From contig JACOZN010000006.1 of assembly GCA_016181305.1 (NCBI GenBank), positions 1 to 35,959 on the forward strand: a DNA stretch of 35,959 nt, written 5' to 3'. Shown in pieces: positions 18,675 to 26,739 of this stretch. The stretch is from Candidatus Woesearchaeota archaeon. Lineage in GTDB: Archaea; Nanobdellota; Nanobdellia; Woesearchaeales; GW2011-AR4. The translations under genes and the position numbers were made by a program. The notes under the pieces are model-generated. The model saw nothing but the letters and a program-made list of their open reading frames with translations. It ran no database searches and was not told the DNA's origin. Numbering within the stretch: the stretch's first letter is position 1; every line of letters starts with the position of its first letter.

Positions 18675-19613
18675 TTAATAAATACTCTCAAAGAATTGTG
18701 GATAATATTTATAATAAATACAATATTTTTTAAGTACTTCTGTTTTTATACCTATCTTTTTACTTGGATTTGATCTTAGTTTTTTATCTTGCTTGATAAG
18801 GGAATCTATATGCATTTTTTCTTTTAATGAGATTATAGGACAATCTATATCTAGAATTTCTTGAGTATTCCTGCAAAAATAGAAATTTGATAATTCTTTT
18901 TTTAATATTCCTATATCCAACTCTTTACAGAATATAACACCGAATGTATACATTCTTTTTGTATCCTTATAGGATAAATTGAACATAGGTATATATGCAA
19001 TCTCTTCTATTTGATTTCTTAACCCATTTTGAATCGAGGTTATTAAAATTGAATTTAACATTTTTGGAAAGTCTTTGATATCTTTTAGCATTACTTCTCC
19101 AGGGAGGTATTGTTGATATTTCGTCTTGAAATTTTTTAATGCTTCTAAACTACTTGGAGATTCACCTTCAATAGTCACCAAAAGAAAGTCATTCGCTTTA
19201 GCATGTGATGAAATTATTTCCACATCAGATATCATCGATTCATCTATTTCTTTATCATAATCTAACCATACAAATAATTTGTCATTCCAAGGTGCAAATC
19301 TTTGAAAATATTCTTGAGAATCGCAAATATTTAACTTTACAAAGTCAAATGGTTTATTAAATTTAAATCTAATCTTATCATCTTTTTTATTTTCAATCGA
19401 AGTCATTTTATTTATGTTAAGATACTTATGGAACATAATAAAATCTGCAAAGTAAACAGAACCAAACCCAATATAATGATATTTATCTATTTCAATTTTT
19501 ATAGAAGCACTTAGGTGTAATAATGCCTCAATGATAAGCTTACGCTCAATTTGCTTTTTAAGACGTAATAAATAATTTACTTTCTCATAACTATACTCTA
19601 CTAGATTAGTCAT
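18675..19613 (-). CDS. Uncharacterised class I SAM-dependent methyltransferase (putative O-methyltransferase type)
   Basis: VNYxLRxxKxIERK N-terminus, YIGFGSVYFADF glycine loop, SIE acidic motif and VWLDYD. 8-nt overlap with the upstream ATPase. Confidence 0.65.
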   Translation of the reverse strand: MTNLVEYSYEKVNYLLRLKKQIERKLIIEALLHLSASIKIEIDKYHYIGFGSVYFADFIMFHKYLNINKMTSIENKKDDKIRFKFNKPFDFVKLNICDSQEYFQRFAPWNDKLFVWLDYDKEIDESMISDVEIISSHAKANDFLLVTIEGESPSSLEALKNFKTKYQQYLPGEVMLKDIKDFPKMLNSILITSIQNGLRNQIEEIAYIPMFNLSYKDTKRMYTFGVIFCKELDIGILKKELSNFYFCRNTQEILDIDCPIISLKEKMHIDSLIKQDKKLRSNPSKKIGIKTEVLKKYCIYYKYYPQFFESIY

Positions 19614-20922
19614 TTGTTATCTCCTCTATTTCAATATAATAGTCAAAAGTTTTTTCTCCAACCGATCTATTGGACATTGAGGAATCTCCAAGTTTCTTTT
19701 TTACCTTTTTTACTAGTTCTTTTTCTTTTGAGTAAGATATATTTGTCCATTTTGATATCGGTGCATCTTTATAAACAATATCACCCTTAACAACAGGTAT
19801 AATACCCTTTGATTCTTCTTTAATATCCTTTCTTGCAATTTCAGTAATTCCTTTAAAAAGAGATCTACCTATTGTATCTCCAGTTTCTTTATCTTTTGTT
19901 CTACCAGCAAGTCGTATTACTTCAACAAAAAGATTAGTAACCGATCTCATTTCAACTTGTGCTTTTCGATATATAGGTGAATCTTCTTGTATATCTTCTT
20001 TAGTAGTATGCCATGGTAATGAGATTGGATTATCTGATCTAAAAAAAACTAATCCTAAAAACTTATTATCTTCGGCATAATGATAAATTTTACCATCTGA
20101 CCCACCCCAACCTGTTTTTGTAGTCGTGTCATTTCTAATAATCAATCGATCGTTACAAAAGACATACCAACCGTATGTTTTAACCTCCCAAATGTCTCCT
20201 GGGGTAAAACCCGCATAAATTTCTACTTCTACTTCCCCCCAATTAAATTTTTTATGATAAGGTTTAAATTTTTTATTCTCAGATAAAAAATTGAATTCAT
20301 ATGGTTCTACTGGTATATTCTTTACATTAATTGTTACTTTTTCAGTTATTAAAATTGAATATGTATTCTTTATCTTCTCTCTAAGAGTATTTTCAAAATG
20401 AACTGTATCAAATTCCTTGCTAATCCCAGAATATAACTCGGTTATAGTAATTCTTGTCATCGGTTTTCCCTTGGATTTTGTTTCTTTCTCAAAACTGAGT
20501 TTCCAGTTTTCTTCATCAATAATCCATTTTTCATTAATTCTAATAGAATAATAATCATGACCATCATCAGATTCAATAAGTATATTTTTACCCATCTTGA
20601 ATATTGCTCTCTTCATGCCTACCCCAAATACACCGATAGTTTTTACTTTTACCTCTTTTAGCATTCCAAATCTGAATACCTTATCATAGATATTTTCTTT
20701 TTTTATACCTCCACAATCGTCTTCTATAACAAATTGATCTTTAGAAAAGTTGACTGAAATGTTTTTTCTTCCTTTCAACTTATTCTCAATATATCCATCT
20801 ATGGAGTTATCAATAAGATCGAGTACTGCATCAGTTAGTTGTATATCTCTAACAAGAGTTGCGATAAAGAAACTTTTAGTTGGAGATGCATCTATTTCGC
20901 TACTGGGCAAAGATTTAGGCAT
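19606..20922 (-). CDS. GHKL (Hsp90/MutL/MORC-type) ATPase
   Basis: N-box LDLIDNSID, G1 IEDDCGGI and G2 IGVFGVGMKRA. S5-like second domain (GWYVFCNDRL...LPWHTTK). No nuclease domain seen. Confidence 0.85.
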   Translation of the reverse strand: MPKSLPSSEIDASPTKSFFIATLVRDIQLTDAVLDLIDNSIDGYIENKLKGRKNISVNFSKDQFVIEDDCGGIKKENIYDKVFRFGMLKEVKVKTIGVFGVGMKRAIFKMGKNILIESDDGHDYYSIRINEKWIIDEENWKLSFEKETKSKGKPMTRITITELYSGISKEFDTVHFENTLREKIKNTYSILITEKVTINVKNIPVEPYEFNFLSENKKFKPYHKKFNWGEVEVEIYAGFTPGDIWEVKTYGWYVFCNDRLIIRNDTTTKTGWGGSDGKIYHYAEDNKFLGLVFFRSDNPISLPWHTTKEDIQEDSPIYRKAQVEMRSVTNLFVEVIRLAGRTKDKETGDTIGRSLFKGITEIARKDIKEESKGIIPVVKGDIVYKDAPISKWTNISYSKEKELVKKVKKKLGDSSMSNRSVGEKTFDYYIEIEEITND

Positions 20923-21026
20923 ATTACCACCCCATTAATTAACAACAAAACAAGTATATAAAAATCTTATGTTTTGTAACCGATATAAACTATACATTTT
21001 TATACTAGTATTTATAAGAGTAGATT

Positions 21027-21881
21027 ATGAACGTAAAAACTCCAACATTCTTAAAATGGGCTGGTGGTAAACAACAATTATTATCTCAATTCTCTAACTA
21101 TTTCCCAACAAATGTTGATTACTATGTAGAACCTTTTTTGGGAGGGGGGGCAGTTTTTTTCTATATCTTAAAGTACAAGCATCCAAAATCTGCAAGGGCA
21201 TTTGACAGTAATAAAGAGTTGATTAATGTATATTTGCAAGTTAAAAATAATATTGATGAACTTATAAAACAACTTGAAATACTAGAAAACGAACATAATA
21301 ATACAAACGACCCATTAAAATACTATTATTCAAAAAGAACAGAATTTAATCATTTAATATCAAATAAAAGACATCTTAGGAAAAATGATATTAAAAAGGC
21401 AGCTATTTTTATATATTTAAATAAAACTTGTTATAATGGATTATATAGAGTAAATTCTTTAGGCGAATTTAATGTTCCCTTTAATGGGTGTGAAAAAGTC
21501 AATCTGTTTGATAAAGAAAATTTAATTGAAGCCAATAATTTAATTAAAGACATAAATTTTGAATGTAAAGATTTTAGAGATGTCAAATTTTATAAAAAGG
21601 AAACAATATATTTTGACCCACCTTATTGGCCCAAAAAAAATGGGTTTATAAGCTATACTAATCCCCAATTTAGTCAAAATTCTCAAATTTTATTAGCAAA
21701 TTTATTTAAAAAACTTCATGCAAAAGGGTACAAATCATTGATATTAAGTAATAGTGATACTCAATTTATAGATCAACTTTATAATGAGTTTAATATATTT
21801 AAAATAAATGCTAGACGAATGATTAATTGTAATGGTAATGGGAGAACTAAGATTAACGAAGTATTAATCACTAATTATTAG
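21027..21881 (+). CDS. Dam/D12-class N6-adenine DNA methyltransferase (alpha class)
   Basis: LKWAGGK, EPFLGGGAV (motif I), YLNKTCYNGLYRVN, YFDPPY (motif IV) and EVLITNY. Confidence 0.92.
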   Translation: MNVKTPTFLKWAGGKQQLLSQFSNYFPTNVDYYVEPFLGGGAVFFYILKYKHPKSARAFDSNKELINVYLQVKNNIDELIKQLEILENEHNNTNDPLKYYYSKRTEFNHLISNKRHLRKNDIKKAAIFIYLNKTCYNGLYRVNSLGEFNVPFNGCEKVNLFDKENLIEANNLIKDINFECKDFRDVKFYKKETIYFDPPYWPKKNGFISYTNPQFSQNSQILLANLFKKLHAKGYKSLILSNSDTQFIDQLYNEFNIFKINARRMINCNGNGRTKINEVLITNY

Positions 21882-22134: not shown

Positions 22135-22151
22135 TGCATTCATAGAATGCA
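22135..22151. promoter_or_regulatory. Inverted repeat TGCATTC-ATA-GAATGCA overlapping the start of the wHTH-MTase operon (candidate operator)
   Basis: Perfect 7-bp arms, lying just downstream of a TATATA box. Confidence 0.5.
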
Positions 22152-22423
22152 TGGAAAGACAAATTATTAAAGGTATAAGCCTTATCAAAAACTCTGATTA
22201 CAGGAAAAGAATATTAATCAGTTTAAGTGACATAAACTATTTAACCCCATCAGAAATTTCACAAAAAACAAAAATAAGACTTAATCATGTCAGTAACTTT
22301 TTAAAAGACCTAAAAGATAGCAAATTAATATTGTGTCTAAATGATGAGGACAAAAGAGGCAGATTATATCAAATTACAGATTTAGGAAAAAAGGTGATTA
22401 AAGAAAATGGAACTCAAGATTAA
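22151..22423 (+). CDS. Winged helix-turn-helix regulator (controller upstream of the MTase)
   Basis: RKRILISL...TPSEISQKTKIRLNHVSNFLKDL...GRLYQITDLG. Confidence 0.85.
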   Translation: MERQIIKGISLIKNSDYRKRILISLSDINYLTPSEISQKTKIRLNHVSNFLKDLKDSKLILCLNDEDKRGRLYQITDLGKKVIKENGTQD

Positions 22424-23210
22424 CCAAATAATTCCAGGAGATTGTTTGGACACATTTAAAAAAATCCCAGATGAGTTTGTTGATTTAATAGTCACTGATC
22501 CACCTTTTAATATCGGCAAAAATTACAAGACCTACAAAGATAGGATGACAAAAGAAGGGTACATTAAGTGGTGTGAAGAATGGCTTGCCGAATGTATAAG
22601 AATTCTAAAACCTCATGGCAGTTTATACTTATTCAATTATCCGGAAAATAATGCTTATTTAATGCCCTTTCTTGACAAAAACATGATTTTCAAAAGATGG
22701 ATGACTTGGCATTATCCTACAAATACTGGAATGTCCCCAACAAACTATACAAGATCACAGCACAGCATACTTTTTTACACAAAAACGGAAAAAGCAACGT
22801 GGAATAAAAATTCAATAGCAGAGCCATATAGGAACCCGACAGATAAGAGAATCTTGGATAGACTAAAGAATGGAAGTGCAGGTAAAACTCCTTACGATGT
22901 TTTTAATTATAATATTGTCAAAAATGTAAATAAAGATAAAACTGAACATGTTTGCCAGTTGCCTGTTGAATTGGTTGAAACACTCATTAGGGCAAGCAGT
23001 AATGAAGGGGATTTAGTTTTTGATCCTTTCATGGGTTCTGGAACTGTGGCAGTAGCAGCTAAAAAGTTAGGTAGGAATTATTTGGGTTGTGAAATCGATA
23101 AGTATTATTGCAAAATAATCAACGAACGATTATCGAAAATTGAAAAACCATTAAGTAGATTTACTGAAATAAAGGCAAAGAACATGGCAGCAATTACAAG
23201 CTTTCTATAA
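22407..23210 (+). CDS. Site-specific DNA methyltransferase (beta-class N4-C/N6-A)
   Basis: Motif IV DPPF precedes motif I DPFMGSGT. Also HxCQLPxxL and YLGCEI. Confidence 0.92.
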   Translation: MELKINQIIPGDCLDTFKKIPDEFVDLIVTDPPFNIGKNYKTYKDRMTKEGYIKWCEEWLAECIRILKPHGSLYLFNYPENNAYLMPFLDKNMIFKRWMTWHYPTNTGMSPTNYTRSQHSILFYTKTEKATWNKNSIAEPYRNPTDKRILDRLKNGSAGKTPYDVFNYNIVKNVNKDKTEHVCQLPVELVETLIRASSNEGDLVFDPFMGSGTVAVAAKKLGRNYLGCEIDKYYCKIINERLSKIEKPLSRFTEIKAKNMAAITSFL

Positions 23211-23750
23211 TTTTACTTTTTCTCGCTTTAGCTTTACAGTATTTCTAGGAGTTATTTCAAAATCTCCAAAGAAAACAATTTTATCTTTTTTCTCATAAAC
23301 TGCTTTTGCTGTTAATGTTGGTCCATAAAATTTCTTTTTAATGTTAGATTTCCAATCGACATTTTTAAGTTGGGTTAAACAACAAAAAAATTCGTCAAAA
23401 TTCCCTCCCCAAGATATTAGTAAATAATCAAATGGTCTTTGACTAAATTCACCACCTGTCCAAGCGTTTTCAGTTGAGGTCATTTTTATTTCCATAGGCT
23501 TATTTATTTTAGTGAATAAAAGGTCTGGTTCTCTATCAGCCAATGCCCTTTTTACTTTGTAACCTAATCTCTTTGTAAAGACATCAGACGCCACCTTTTC
23601 CATAATTTTGCCTATGATTTCAGATAAATTCTTATTACTAAAACTGAGGTCGTATTCGTCCATAAGTTCTTTTTTGAATTTCTGCATCCTAAAAGAAACC
23701 CCTTCAAGAATTTCTACTACCATATCTTTAGTAATATTAAATTCATTCAT
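23205..23750 (-). CDS. Putative type II restriction endonuclease (PD-(D/E)xK)
   Basis: EPDLLF...MEIK catalytic pattern, convergent with and abutting the MTase. Confidence 0.65.
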   Translation of the reverse strand: MNEFNITKDMVVEILEGVSFRMQKFKKELMDEYDLSFSNKNLSEIIGKIMEKVASDVFTKRLGYKVKRALADREPDLLFTKINKPMEIKMTSTENAWTGGEFSQRPFDYLLISWGGNFDEFFCCLTQLKNVDWKSNIKKKFYGPTLTAKAVYEKKDKIVFFGDFEITPRNTVKLKREKVKL

Positions 23751-23998
23751 TTTGTTGAAAGCACCTCTCCTTTTTTTGTTATAACATACAATTTTCCAAT
23801 CTTATCTTTAGGATTAACACATTCTATCAACTTTTTATTAGAAAGTTCCTTTAAAGTAAAAGAAGCCTGAGAAATGGCTATTTTCAGCGATTTCTTGATA
23901 TAATTAGTAGATAAAGGCTTATCCGATTTTGCAAGTAACTCTAATACACTCTTTCTTCTAGAGCCTCTATTAACCCAAGCATACAGCCCCCAATCCAT
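23747..23998 (-). CDS. Winged helix-turn-helix regulator (controller upstream of the endonuclease)
   Basis: RRKSVLELL...LKELSNKKLIECVNPKDKIGKLYVITKKG, paralogous to 22151-22423. 4-nt overlap with the endonuclease. Confidence 0.85.
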   Translation of the reverse strand: MDWGLYAWVNRGSRRKSVLELLAKSDKPLSTNYIKKSLKIAISQASFTLKELSNKKLIECVNPKDKIGKLYVITKKGEVLSTK

Positions 23999-24535: not shown

Positions 24536-24568
24536 GTAACTAATTACTTATATTAGTAAAATGTTACT
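24531..24568. promoter_or_regulatory. Tandem operators TATAAGTAA-CTAA-TTACTTATA (24531-24552) and AGTAA-AATG-TTACT (24555-24568)
   Basis: Inverted repeats with 4-nt spacers covering the TATA box and start codon of the HTH-MNT gene. Confidence 0.6.
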
Positions 24569-25154
24569 TAATAATACAGAACTACTAATCATTGAGCCTT
24601 TTGTCCTGAATTACAGGGCGAGGCTTACAGGCAGCGCTATAGCAAAAACCAAAAAGCTGAACCAAAAAACAGTCTCAAATTATCTAAAGAGCCTTGAAAG
24701 CCAGAATTTCCTGAAAAGCGCAGAAGAGGGCAGGAACAGGCTGTACTTCCTGAATCTGAATGATGAGCAGCTTATAGTAAATTTCATCTCAGCGGTTGAA
24801 AATGCGAGAACAATAAATTTTTATCAAAAGCATATACTAATAAAGGAAATAGCGGCGAAGATACTGCCGCATACCAGGGGAATCTCATTGATATTTGGAA
24901 GCTATGCGAAAGGAAATGAGAAGGAAGGCTCGGATTTGGATATTTTTATTGCAGGAAGCGCAGATGAAGGCCAAATTGATAAAATTGCTAATGTATACCA
25001 TTTGGAGATCAGTATCAAAAAATACACGATGCTGGAATTCAAAAAAGCTCTAAAGGAAAACGACCCGTTAATAAAAGAGGTAATAAACAACCACATTTTA
25101 ATGCAGAATGCGCAGGAATTTGTGGGATGCGTGAGGGATGCCGAAAATGATTGA
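24561..25154 (+). CDS. HTH + minimal nucleotidyltransferase (MNT) antitoxin
   Basis: N-terminal wHTH and a GSX10DXD motif (GSYAKGNEKEGSDLD). Confidence 0.88.
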   Translation: MLLNNTELLIIEPFVLNYRARLTGSAIAKTKKLNQKTVSNYLKSLESQNFLKSAEEGRNRLYFLNLNDEQLIVNFISAVENARTINFYQKHILIKEIAAKILPHTRGISLIFGSYAKGNEKEGSDLDIFIAGSADEGQIDKIANVYHLEISIKKYTMLEFKKALKENDPLIKEVINNHILMQNAQEFVGCVRDAEND

Positions 25155-25641
25155 ATGGTGCATGAAGCTGAAAAACGGAATTGAGCTTGCAGCCCCAAAC
25201 GACAACCTTTGCAGAGCTTATATGCAAAAAGCAGAAACAGCGCTAAGTGCAGCTTCAGCATTGAGCGGGAATAAAGAATGGGAAGTATCTTCAAGCTATT
25301 ATGCCATGTACTTTTCCCTGTATGCGGTTATGAGCAAGATTGGAGTCAAATGCGAGAATCATAGCTGCAGCATCGCTTTCATGAAAGAGTTCCTGTCTGA
25401 AAAATTCAAAAAGGCTGATTCGGATTTTCTCAAAAAGGCCATGCATGCAAGGATCGATATGCAATATTATTCAAACAGGGGCATTGATGACGAATTCTAC
25501 CAGAAAATGATGAAAAATGCCCCGGTTTTTCTTGTTGAGTGCAAGGAGATAATTAACTCAATAAAGCATGAGGAAATAACCCAAATAAGGGATGAATTGG
25601 AAAAAATAAAAGAAGAGCTCAGTAAAAATCCAAATAAGTAA
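25138..25641 (+). CDS. HEPN-domain protein (toxin partner)
   Basis: SSYYAMY, KCENHSC and RIDMQYY. Overlaps the MNT gene. Confidence 0.85.
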   Translation: MPKMIEWCMKLKNGIELAAPNDNLCRAYMQKAETALSAASALSGNKEWEVSSSYYAMYFSLYAVMSKIGVKCENHSCSIAFMKEFLSEKFKKADSDFLKKAMHARIDMQYYSNRGIDDEFYQKMMKNAPVFLVECKEIINSIKHEEITQIRDELEKIKEELSKNPNK

Positions 25642-25729
25642 CAAAATCCTTGCAAACAACCTAATCTCCTTCTGCATAAGGCATTTTGATGATTATGAGC
25701 CAATAATAAACCAAAAGATTTAAATACTA

Positions 25730-25749
25730 ATGTAACAAATATGTTACAT
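25730..25749. promoter_or_regulatory. Operator palindrome ATGTAACA-AATA-TGTTACAT
   Basis: Perfect 8-bp arms between TTTAAATA (25719-25726) and ATG 25750. Confidence 0.6.
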
Positions 25750-26289
25750 ATGAAACAAAAATTATACAATACTATTTTGAACCTGCTTAATGGGGACAAC
25801 CATCTGAGGCAGATAGCCAAGGACATCAAGACAAACCATATGACAGTAAAAAGAGCCCTCGATATTTTAATAAAGGAAAACGTCCTTGATGTGAGGAAAG
25901 AGGGGAAAAACAGCATATATTCGATAAAGAAGACTTTGGAAGCGCAGAACTTCGTCTTTATGGCGGAAATCTACAAATTCAACAGCTTAATAAAAAAGCA
26001 CCCTGAATTAAAGCAGGATTTAAAGGAATTAAAAAAACTGCATATTAACATTATTGCAGTCTTCGGAAGCTATGCCAAGAGCATTGAAACAGATAAAAGC
26101 GACATTGACATGTATATCGAAACTCAGAATGGTAAAATAAAGAGGGAAGCTTCCAAAATAAACAGGAAATTCAGCATCAAAACAGGCTTATACGCCAAAG
26201 ACAGCCTGCTTATAAAAGAAATTGAAAAAAACCACATAATCGTGAAAGGGGTTGAAATTTTTTATGAAAAAAATAAATTTTTTGATTAA
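25741..26289 (+). CDS. HTH + MNT antitoxin (second pair). Start is probably ATG 25750
   Basis: wHTH (HLRQIAKDIKTNHMTVKRAL) and GSX10DXD (GSYAKSIETDKSDID). Confidence 0.88.
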   Translation: MLHMKQKLYNTILNLLNGDNHLRQIAKDIKTNHMTVKRALDILIKENVLDVRKEGKNSIYSIKKTLEAQNFVFMAEIYKFNSLIKKHPELKQDLKELKKLHINIIAVFGSYAKSIETDKSDIDMYIETQNGKIKREASKINRKFSIKTGLYAKDSLLIKEIEKNHIIVKGVEIFYEKNKFFD

Positions 26290-26739
26290 GCTCAAGGAAG
26301 AGGGAAAGCTCTCCATTACAGATCCAAGCGAAGAAGTCAAGGAATCTTATATAAGGAAATCCGCAAGTTCGTTAAAATCGGCGGAATTTTATTGGGAAAT
26401 GGGCAGGTGGAAGATGCAGTACCCATGGCGTATTATTCCATGTACAACATGCTCACTGCCCTTCTCTATAAAGCAGGCATAAAATGCGAAAACCATTCGG
26501 CATCCATAATCATTTTAAAAGAATTATTTGGCATAGAAAATTCAAAGATAATCTTCGCAAAAAAGGAAAGGGTGGATAAGCAATACTATGTGGATTTTAA
26601 AATAACAAAAGAAGAAGTCGGAAATATGATTAAATCAGCGGAGCAGTTTAATTCAATGCTCTATGATTTTATTGACAAATTAACGGCAAAAAAGGCATCA
26701 GAGTACAGGAAAGAGTTTGAAGACAGTTTAGTAAATTAA
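26264..26739 (+). pseudogene. HEPN-domain protein with a 1-nt frameshift near 26387
   Basis: MKKINFLIKLKEEGKL...SLKSAE continues in another frame as LLGNGQVEDAVPMAYYSMY...KCENH...RVDKQYY. Adding one base at GAA/TTTT restores a single ORF. Confidence 0.75.

Follow-up and report, generated by a model that had tools for sequence, protein, structure and literature searches.

In plants and animals, MORC ATPases act together with DNA methylation to silence foreign DNA, and we know of no experimental study of their prokaryotic relatives. The presence of MORC-type ATPases in operons resembling restriction-modification (R-M) systems has been known from comparative genomics since 2008: in the main text of their survey, Iyer, Abhiman and Aravind predicted that prokaryotic MORCs work in R-M operons with DNA methylases, a minority of the neighbourhoods holding methylases or restriction enzymes without a helicase (PMC2292703). 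Here we analyse a stretch of 35,959 nucleotides from a Candidatus Woesearchaeota archaeon (contig JACOZN010000006.1; hereafter the window), in which the gene of a MORC-family ATPase is followed by that of a protein of the Pfam family PF20553 with a predicted methyltransferase fold, next to a gene for a Dam-family DNA methyltransferase. An obligate PF20553 partner and a nuclease-free form with three genes are not described in the searchable literature. With moderate confidence, we read the ATPase and the PF20553 protein as one module that works with the neighbouring DNA-modification enzyme as an R-M-like immune system without a recognisable nuclease.

The window ATPase has in common with the prokaryotic MORCs and paraMORCs, as presented in the text of that survey, the combination of GHKL and S5 regions, the signature motif, a patchy and laterally mobile spread, and operons with methylases; the partners named there are helicases, nucleases and TIR proteins, whereas here the partner is an obligate PF20553 protein and no nuclease is present (PMC2292703). 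A methyltransferase-fold partner is not mentioned in the main text sections of the same paper and may figure unnamed in its figures or supplement. Mza (MzaABCDE, with the MutL-like MzaB) likewise ties a GHKL ATPase to a DNA methyltransferase in a defence setting. However, the window ATPase matches MzaB weakly and N-terminally, at 15 bits against an NCBIfam cut-off of 850, without a PADLOC match, and no recurring partner of the Z1 or AIPR families of Mza was seen among the related loci described below. In BREX, DISARM and Hma, too, self is marked by a methyltransferase, and the pair occurs inside DISARM and beside Hma components; these systems are much larger, have other core genes, and none of their PADLOC models matches the pair. 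BREX, to our knowledge, has no recognised nuclease. Tiamat and Shedu-type GHKL systems also place a GHL ATPase clamp in antiphage defence, often near DNA methyltransferases, but they carry a fused PD-(D/E)xK nuclease, which is missing from the window ATPase, and PADLOC gives no match (10.64898/2026.09.30.754977; PMC12137116). Finally, ABC ATPase, GmrSD-like and RNase systems make up HEC-01 to HEC-09, and the HEC and PDC candidates rest on the same type of evidence as ours, namely genes nested in Hma, DISARM or Dnd-type systems (Payne et al., 10.1101/2024.01.29.577857).

A preliminary description of the window had called the pair an undescribed defence system and had proposed PADLOC and Pfam searches. 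These matched no named system and assigned the two proteins to PF20553 and PF13589. Neither the window pair nor five others had a match in PADLOC-DB v2.0.0, apart from a weak N-terminal MzaB match of one ATPase; NCBIfam held nothing for the PF20553 protein, and no paper in the searchable literature names PF20553 (Methyltransf_35) or HATPase_c_3 in a defence context. The pair is thus unnamed in all three sources, while the word undescribed does not extend to the methyltransferase family, which is already in Pfam as PF20553.

Both genes of the pair were identified from their open reading frames (ORFs) and Pfam matches and lie on the reverse strand. The gene of the MORC-family GHKL (GHL) ATPase (19606-20922, 438 aa, PF13589 HATPase_c_3) comes first, followed by that of the PF20553 protein (18675-19613, 312 aa), which we propose as its effector or partner. 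On that strand the stop of the ATPase gene and the start of the PF20553 gene share 8 nt (ATGACTAA, 19606-19613), and a purine-rich GAGGAG stands immediately 5' of the overlap, an arrangement read as translational coupling. Upstream of the pair, an AT-rich divergent intergenic region of 104 bp with TATA-like runs (20923-21026) is common to the pair and to the gene of a Dam-family (D12, alpha-class) N6-adenine DNA methyltransferase of 284 aa on the forward strand (21027-21881), the candidate modification partner at this locus. The ORF coordinates, the overlap and the divergent spacing of about 100 bp given in the preliminary description all agree with this reading.

The coupling is directly supported well beyond this genome. 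A pattern scan with PF20553 peptide patterns, taking one genome per species, yielded 80 loci spread over many bacterial and archaeal phyla, and the counts below hold for that sample. In 75 of them the gene immediately 5' of PF20553, on the same strand, encodes an ATPase homologue; in the other five the PF20553 gene is no more than 470 nt away from a contig end. The spacing of the two genes, taken over 64 homologous pairs, ranges from -56 to +10 nt and is mostly -1, -4 or -8. The closest metagenomic homologues have 65% and 60% identity. When the search was turned round and the ATPase profile was run on 401 genomes of a single phylum, it gave six strong matches: five adjoin a PF20553 gene, and the sixth lacks one and is preceded by a Vsr gene. 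The pairing is therefore far beyond chance, and the view of the two genes as a conserved, translationally coupled module, for which the preliminary description had proposed a co-occurrence count, stands in both directions. On the ATPase tree the window's pair groups with a pair from Methanoperedens, and searches of 24 genomes of the same genus and 16 others of the same order did not detect the family.

Some loci depart from this arrangement. On the pSymA replicon of S. meliloti KH46 (L084, 2671-7816) the copy is decayed: the ATPase gene is intact and is followed by an insertion of about 3 kb, possibly an insertion sequence, the PF20553 gene begins only at residue 52, and the C5 methyltransferase 3 kb off is intact. 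In Clostridium tanneri (L079, 40-8741) the PF20553 homologue has 426 aa with two stretches matching the model, and its gene stands between those of a 1372-aa HerA-like protein and a KAP NTPase. A further locus (L093, 1444-3967) holds a distant sister ATPase of 538 aa (E 4e-38 to the family profile) with the same S5 motif, whose gene overlaps a downstream TIR-domain gene (27.1 bits, slightly below the Pfam cut-off of 28). This translational coupling to a TIR-domain protein suggests the downstream slot as the place of an effector and the ATPase as a sensor or motor. This arrangement recalls the TIR-linked paraMORC4 in the text of Iyer et al. (PMC2292703).

The ATPase matches PF13589 with an E value of 2.8e-13, and its AlphaFold2 (AF2) model (pLDDT, the predicted local distance difference test, 83.7) shows a Bergerat fold, an S5 transducer and, at the C-terminus, a short and conserved helical tail. 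The GHKL/GHL motifs D35-x3-N39, D68-x-G-G, G97-x2-G100-x-G102, G-T156 and T-T-K308 (the transducer lysine) are kept in 67-69 of 69 homologues; individually, N39, D68, G72, G100, G102 and K308 are kept in 68-69, and position 35 is acidic in 68. By its Bergerat motifs I-IV and the S5 sensor lysine, the protein belongs to the GHKL/GHL superfamily. Its S5 motif GWYVFCNDRLI (beginning at G251 and including R259) fits the MORC signature GhXhhpXXRhl, with G251, N257 and R259 invariant, and the top Foldseek matches of the model are DNA-bound MORC2 and MORC3/4, along with Hsp90, MutL and GyrB. Motif and fold matches together place it in the MORC family sensu Iyer et al. 2008. Neither Pfam nor the predicted model contains a nuclease domain anywhere in the 438 aa, so that the earlier picture of a MORC-like ATPase free of nuclease is upheld. 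A PDB sequence search gave no significant match, and fused long forms of the ATPase or of the PF20553 protein were not found, which is weak evidence.

The PF20553 protein matches its Pfam model at 252.2 bits (cut-off 27) over model positions 2-307 of 309, and all 25 aligned relatives match it too; Pfam labels the family a putative O-methyltransferase. It is a small family, with 2,226 clusters among 1.84 billion representatives, and the best 150 clusters each contain a single matched stretch in proteins of 242-367 aa. The AF2 model (pLDDT 89.4, predicted template modelling score 0.88) adopts a class I S-adenosylmethionine (SAM)-dependent methyltransferase fold with a Trm1-like C-terminal part. 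Foldseek returned 216 PDB matches at E <= 0.001, methyltransferases for the most part, with the tRNA methyltransferase Trm1 on top (E 1.5e-7), followed by RsmD- and RlmI-type RNA enzymes, cation-dependent O-methyltransferases and aminopropyl transferases. In VIA the model scored Z 13.9 to both Tt1595 and Trm1, the alignment to Trm1 being the longest (220 residues, rmsd 4.0). A PDB sequence search gave no significant match, and searches of BFVD and the ESM Atlas gave only generic methyltransferase neighbours.

Seven residues (G49, G51, D57, N86, W116, D118 and Y215) are invariant across 65 homologues, and position 74 holds only E or D; conservation extends to W116-x-D118-Y/F-D120, D/N149 and a basic/acidic N-terminal helix. 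The model together with the SAM-loop glycines and the acidic residue at the end of strand 2 identify a class I SAM-dependent methyltransferase fold. The protein carries YIGFGS and WLDYD, the latter at the position of motif IV, which reads W-L-D-Y/F-D in the family; neither DPPY/NPPY (there is no PP) nor PC, the motifs of DNA methyltransferases, occurs in it. These motifs are those on which the preliminary description had called it a non-canonical SAM methyltransferase, and the AF2 model supports the fold. A reading of WLDYD as a mark of a Toprim-like nuclease was dropped, the model having matched methyltransferases throughout. The D-x-D after strand 4 and the D/N after strand 5 resemble what we take to be the metal site of O-methyltransferases, and there are weak matches to TylF and Methyltransf_24, in agreement with the Pfam label. 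Trm1 (m2,2G26) and the cation-dependent O-methyltransferases of Rv0187, CysG and TylF type share the class I SAM fold with the protein, which differs in having no sequence-level match to a solved structure and in lacking the DPF/DPPF motif of amino-methyltransferases.

Taken at face value, the Pfam label, the weak TylF and Methyltransf_24 matches and the Rv0187 and CysG fold matches, along with Hsp90 among the fold matches of the ATPase, would allow an ordinary small-molecule O-methyltransferase with a chaperone-like ATPase at its side and no connection with nucleic acids or conflict. We give this explanation hardly any credence: the loci show no recurring biosynthetic neighbours, the spread is patchy and scrambled with respect to taxonomy, and strict ties link the pair to genes of DNA modification and defence.

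In 58 of the 80 loci a DNA methyltransferase is encoded no more than 300 nt from the pair (co-directionally in 51), and in 67 loci one is found within 2.5 kb. The partner stands on either side of the pair, with a median gap of -4 nt, and is an N6_N4 enzyme (PF01555, SPPY-type in the 11 downstream-type ones that were aligned) or a C5 enzyme (PF00145). About half of the 13 loci without a methyltransferase within 2.5 kb are cut at a contig end, and four methyltransferase-less loci carry Dnd genes instead (DndE, DndA-like, DndD-like or DndB-like). On the ATPase tree, clade membership goes with the type and side of the partner (26 changes, compared with 43 in shuffles), and host taxonomy is scrambled. 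What is conserved is thus directly visible as adjacency to some DNA-modification gene (N4/N6, C5, MmeI-like or Dnd) and not to Dam: because a Dam-type partner occurs in none of the 80 loci, the suggestion that the module reads a Dam-type mark proved too specific.

This adjacency bears on the possibility of an abortive-infection or toxin module independent of DNA methylation, in which the ATPase would sense a phage cue, the PF20553 protein would methylate an essential RNA or consume SAM, and the methyltransferases would be neighbours only because defence genes cluster in islands or because mobile elements carry them to protect themselves. Trm1 as the best structural match, the spermidine synthase and the SAM cyclase AzeJ among the other fold matches, and the position of the pair in defence islands and prophage cargo regions all speak for it. 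The operon-like spacing of the methyltransferase genes, their common direction in 51 loci and the tracking of partner type along the ATPase tree go beyond loose clustering, and we consider such a module unlikely.

Some of the partner genes have further features. Downstream N6_N4 (SPPY) methyltransferases carry a C-terminal extension of 160 aa in L006, L009, L011, L014, L016 and L027, and also in L034, L038, L049, L056 and L059; the six extensions scanned had no Pfam match, no nuclease motif was seen, and the few conserved residues comprise L-R-K-x-K and one Tyr. The extension may be a target-recognition or docking domain. In three Pyrinomonadaceae loci (L007, L028 and L040) an HhH-GPD glycosylase gene, typed in L028 and in the same cluster in the others, lies 5' of the C5 methyltransferase gene of the triad, and may be a mismatch-repair companion of that enzyme.

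The glycosylase genes, together with a Vsr gene 5' of the ATPase gene in L091 and MutL among the fold matches of the ATPase, also invite the interpretation of the pair as a MutL-like DNA-repair accessory, dealing with damage or mismatches from the neighbouring methyltransferase as Vsr or glycosylase partners of C5 enzymes do. Most partners, however, are N4/N6 enzymes, which are expected to create no T:G problem; the interpretation leaves the SAM enzyme without a role, and the DISARM, Hma, Pbe and prophage-cargo contexts indicate conflict. A repair function is accordingly very improbable in our assessment.

Embedding in defence and mobile DNA is directly supported by these contexts. On a plasmid of Microvirga terrae the pair, annotated as an ATP-binding protein and an O-methyltransferase, sits inside a class 1 DISARM operon between an MmeI-like methyltransferase gene (drmMI-like) and drmA. 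Full-length HmaA is encoded 3' of the pair in L008 and HmaC 5' of the methyltransferase in L013, and PbeA adjoins in L066 and L073. The BamHI endonuclease and its methylase stand beside the pair in four loci, in three of them with a C-protein gene, and further loci have Type IIG and Type ISP enzymes or KAP and HerA-like NTPases nearby. In the Pseudomonas phage PfAC20, the ATPase, the PF20553 protein and a C5 methyltransferase are genes 1-3, in a cargo region that in other Pf phages holds toxin-antitoxin (TA) genes, IetAS or Avs; a published PADLOC analysis scored PfAC20 with an incomplete R-M system only (PMC11878078). The same triad is also found on two IMG/VR contigs. The association with defence made in the preliminary description therefore holds in part, at the level of context (DISARM, Hma, Pbe/Dnd, R-M and prophage cargo) and in that the family was not found in the 40 related genomes searched.

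The most serious competing explanation is raised by the same contexts. There the pair could act on the modification side, either as an ATP-dependent second modification enzyme, with the PF20553 protein methylating DNA or a modified base, or as a loader or regulator of the neighbouring enzyme. The SAM-binding signature is fully conserved, no nuclease is present, and the pair adjoins a modification gene even where the surrounding system owns its effectors (the MmeI-like methyltransferase of DISARM, Hma, Dnd and BamHI R-M). Set against this, the PF20553 protein lacks the DPPY/NPPY and PC motifs, its nearest folds are RNA and small-molecule methyltransferases, the partner of the sister ATPase is a TIR protein, a typical effector, and the Methanoperedens pair (L002) has no modification gene nearby. 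We hold this to be the main rival, though a rather doubtful one.

The conservation of the catalytic residues of both proteins throughout the family also speaks for the favoured reading, an R-M-like immune module, for which we propose a defence activity based on the following distinction between self and non-self. Mechanistically, a DNA methyltransferase (here the divergent Dam-family enzyme), or Dnd, would mark host DNA as self, and the MORC ATPase, acting as an ATP-driven dimerising DNA clamp, would sense or entrap DNA without the mark. In a contact that is likewise proposed, the ATPase would then license its translationally coupled PF20553 partner, which, with SAM and a probable metal site (D118, D120, D/N149), would modify a hydroxyl-bearing nucleic-acid or nucleotide target; alternatively, the PF20553 protein would block the invader in another way. 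With no nuclease in the cassette, the invader would be stopped by non-nucleolytic means, as in BREX. The combination of an ATPase sensor or motor with an effector slot, as suggested by the sister ATPase, matches the logic proposed by Iyer et al. for MORCs in R-M operons (PMC2292703). As to the effector chemistry, we put forward only tentatively that recognition of unmarked DNA by the clamp activates a metal-dependent effector, and that O-methylation (e.g. of a terminal ribose or a DNA 3' hydroxyl) or SAM consumption disables the target, which would amount to a nuclease-free, modification-guided immunity.

Several points weigh against such a system. Compared with a type II R-M system, a methyltransferase is present and the cassette proteins contain no recognisable nuclease fold or motif; a Pfam and motif check found neither a nuclease nor a known toxic domain in the cassette, so there is no evident restriction activity. 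The closest relative, the Methanoperedens pair, has no methyltransferase within 3-6 kb. At the window locus it is adjacency that links the Dam-family enzyme to the pair, since a Dam-type partner is missing from all related loci and the enzyme here is divergent and not co-directional. Moreover, where the context is BamHI, DISARM or Hma, the adjacent methyltransferase is already part of a complete system, and the pair may therefore serve the modification side. A single conserved protein contact is also unlikely, because the partners comprise three unrelated methyltransferase classes and Dnd.

The module is compact, with three genes, free of nuclease, and spans bacteria and archaea. If protective, it would show how a MORC clamp stops an invader without cutting and what role a methyltransferase-fold effector has in immunity; if, in addition, the O-methylation or SAM-consumption chemistry were true, it would represent a new effector chemistry for prokaryotic immunity and a bacterial and archaeal antecedent of the eukaryotic partnership between MORC and DNA methylation in silencing. 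Methyltransferases called orphan or incomplete, as for phage PfAC20 (PMC11878078), may conceal complete systems, and the PfAC20 copy, from a clinical isolate of Pseudomonas aeruginosa, is a possible experimental starting point.

The Dam-family enzyme of the window matches PF02086 at 190 bits and passes TIGR00571 (240.8 bits, cut-off 114.85), with FLGGG and DPPY intact in alpha-class order. It falls under the cut-off of the E. coli Dam equivalog (150.8 vs 441), so GATC is only its candidate target. In the 78%-complete genome it is the sole match to the D12 model above cut-off, and a DpnII-type endonuclease was not found. Nor does an endonuclease adjoin the gene, the sole following ORF having 67 aa, and the call of an alpha-class adenine methyltransferase without an adjacent endonuclease is borne out. 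GATC is the most avoided 4-base palindrome genome-wide, with an observed/expected ratio of 0.23 (GGCC, 0.34), and 9 of the 35 GATC sites of the window fall in the 3-kb segment with the pair and the Dam-family gene (18772-21771). This concentration agrees with an island imported recently, or with a protective role of the Dam-family enzyme.

The host genome is small (1.07 Mb assembled, 78% completeness) and encodes TBP, which identifies the host as an archaeon. GC content is 25-32% over 18-24 kb of the window, compared with 41% genome-wide, and beyond the Dam-family gene come a winged-helix gene with an N6_N4 methyltransferase gene and then two MNT-HEPN pairs, in keeping with the AT-rich island of R-M and TA genes noted at the outset. 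The winged-helix gene (22151-22423) overlaps the N6_N4 methyltransferase gene (22407-23210), to which a 181-aa ORF without a Pfam or PADLOC match (23205-23750) is convergent, followed by an 83-aa winged-helix gene; the genes of 22151-23998 are probably a separate type II R-M system with two controllers. At 24561-26739 two pairs of MNT nucleotidyltransferase and HEPN genes of toxin-antitoxin type stand in succession; the nucleotidyltransferases carry an N-terminal extension, and that of the first weakly matches SoFic-like_C and Penicillinase_R (winged-helix-type). A second HATPase_c_3 protein, in a 558-aa frame, is encoded elsewhere in the genome (contig C16, 19478-19849).

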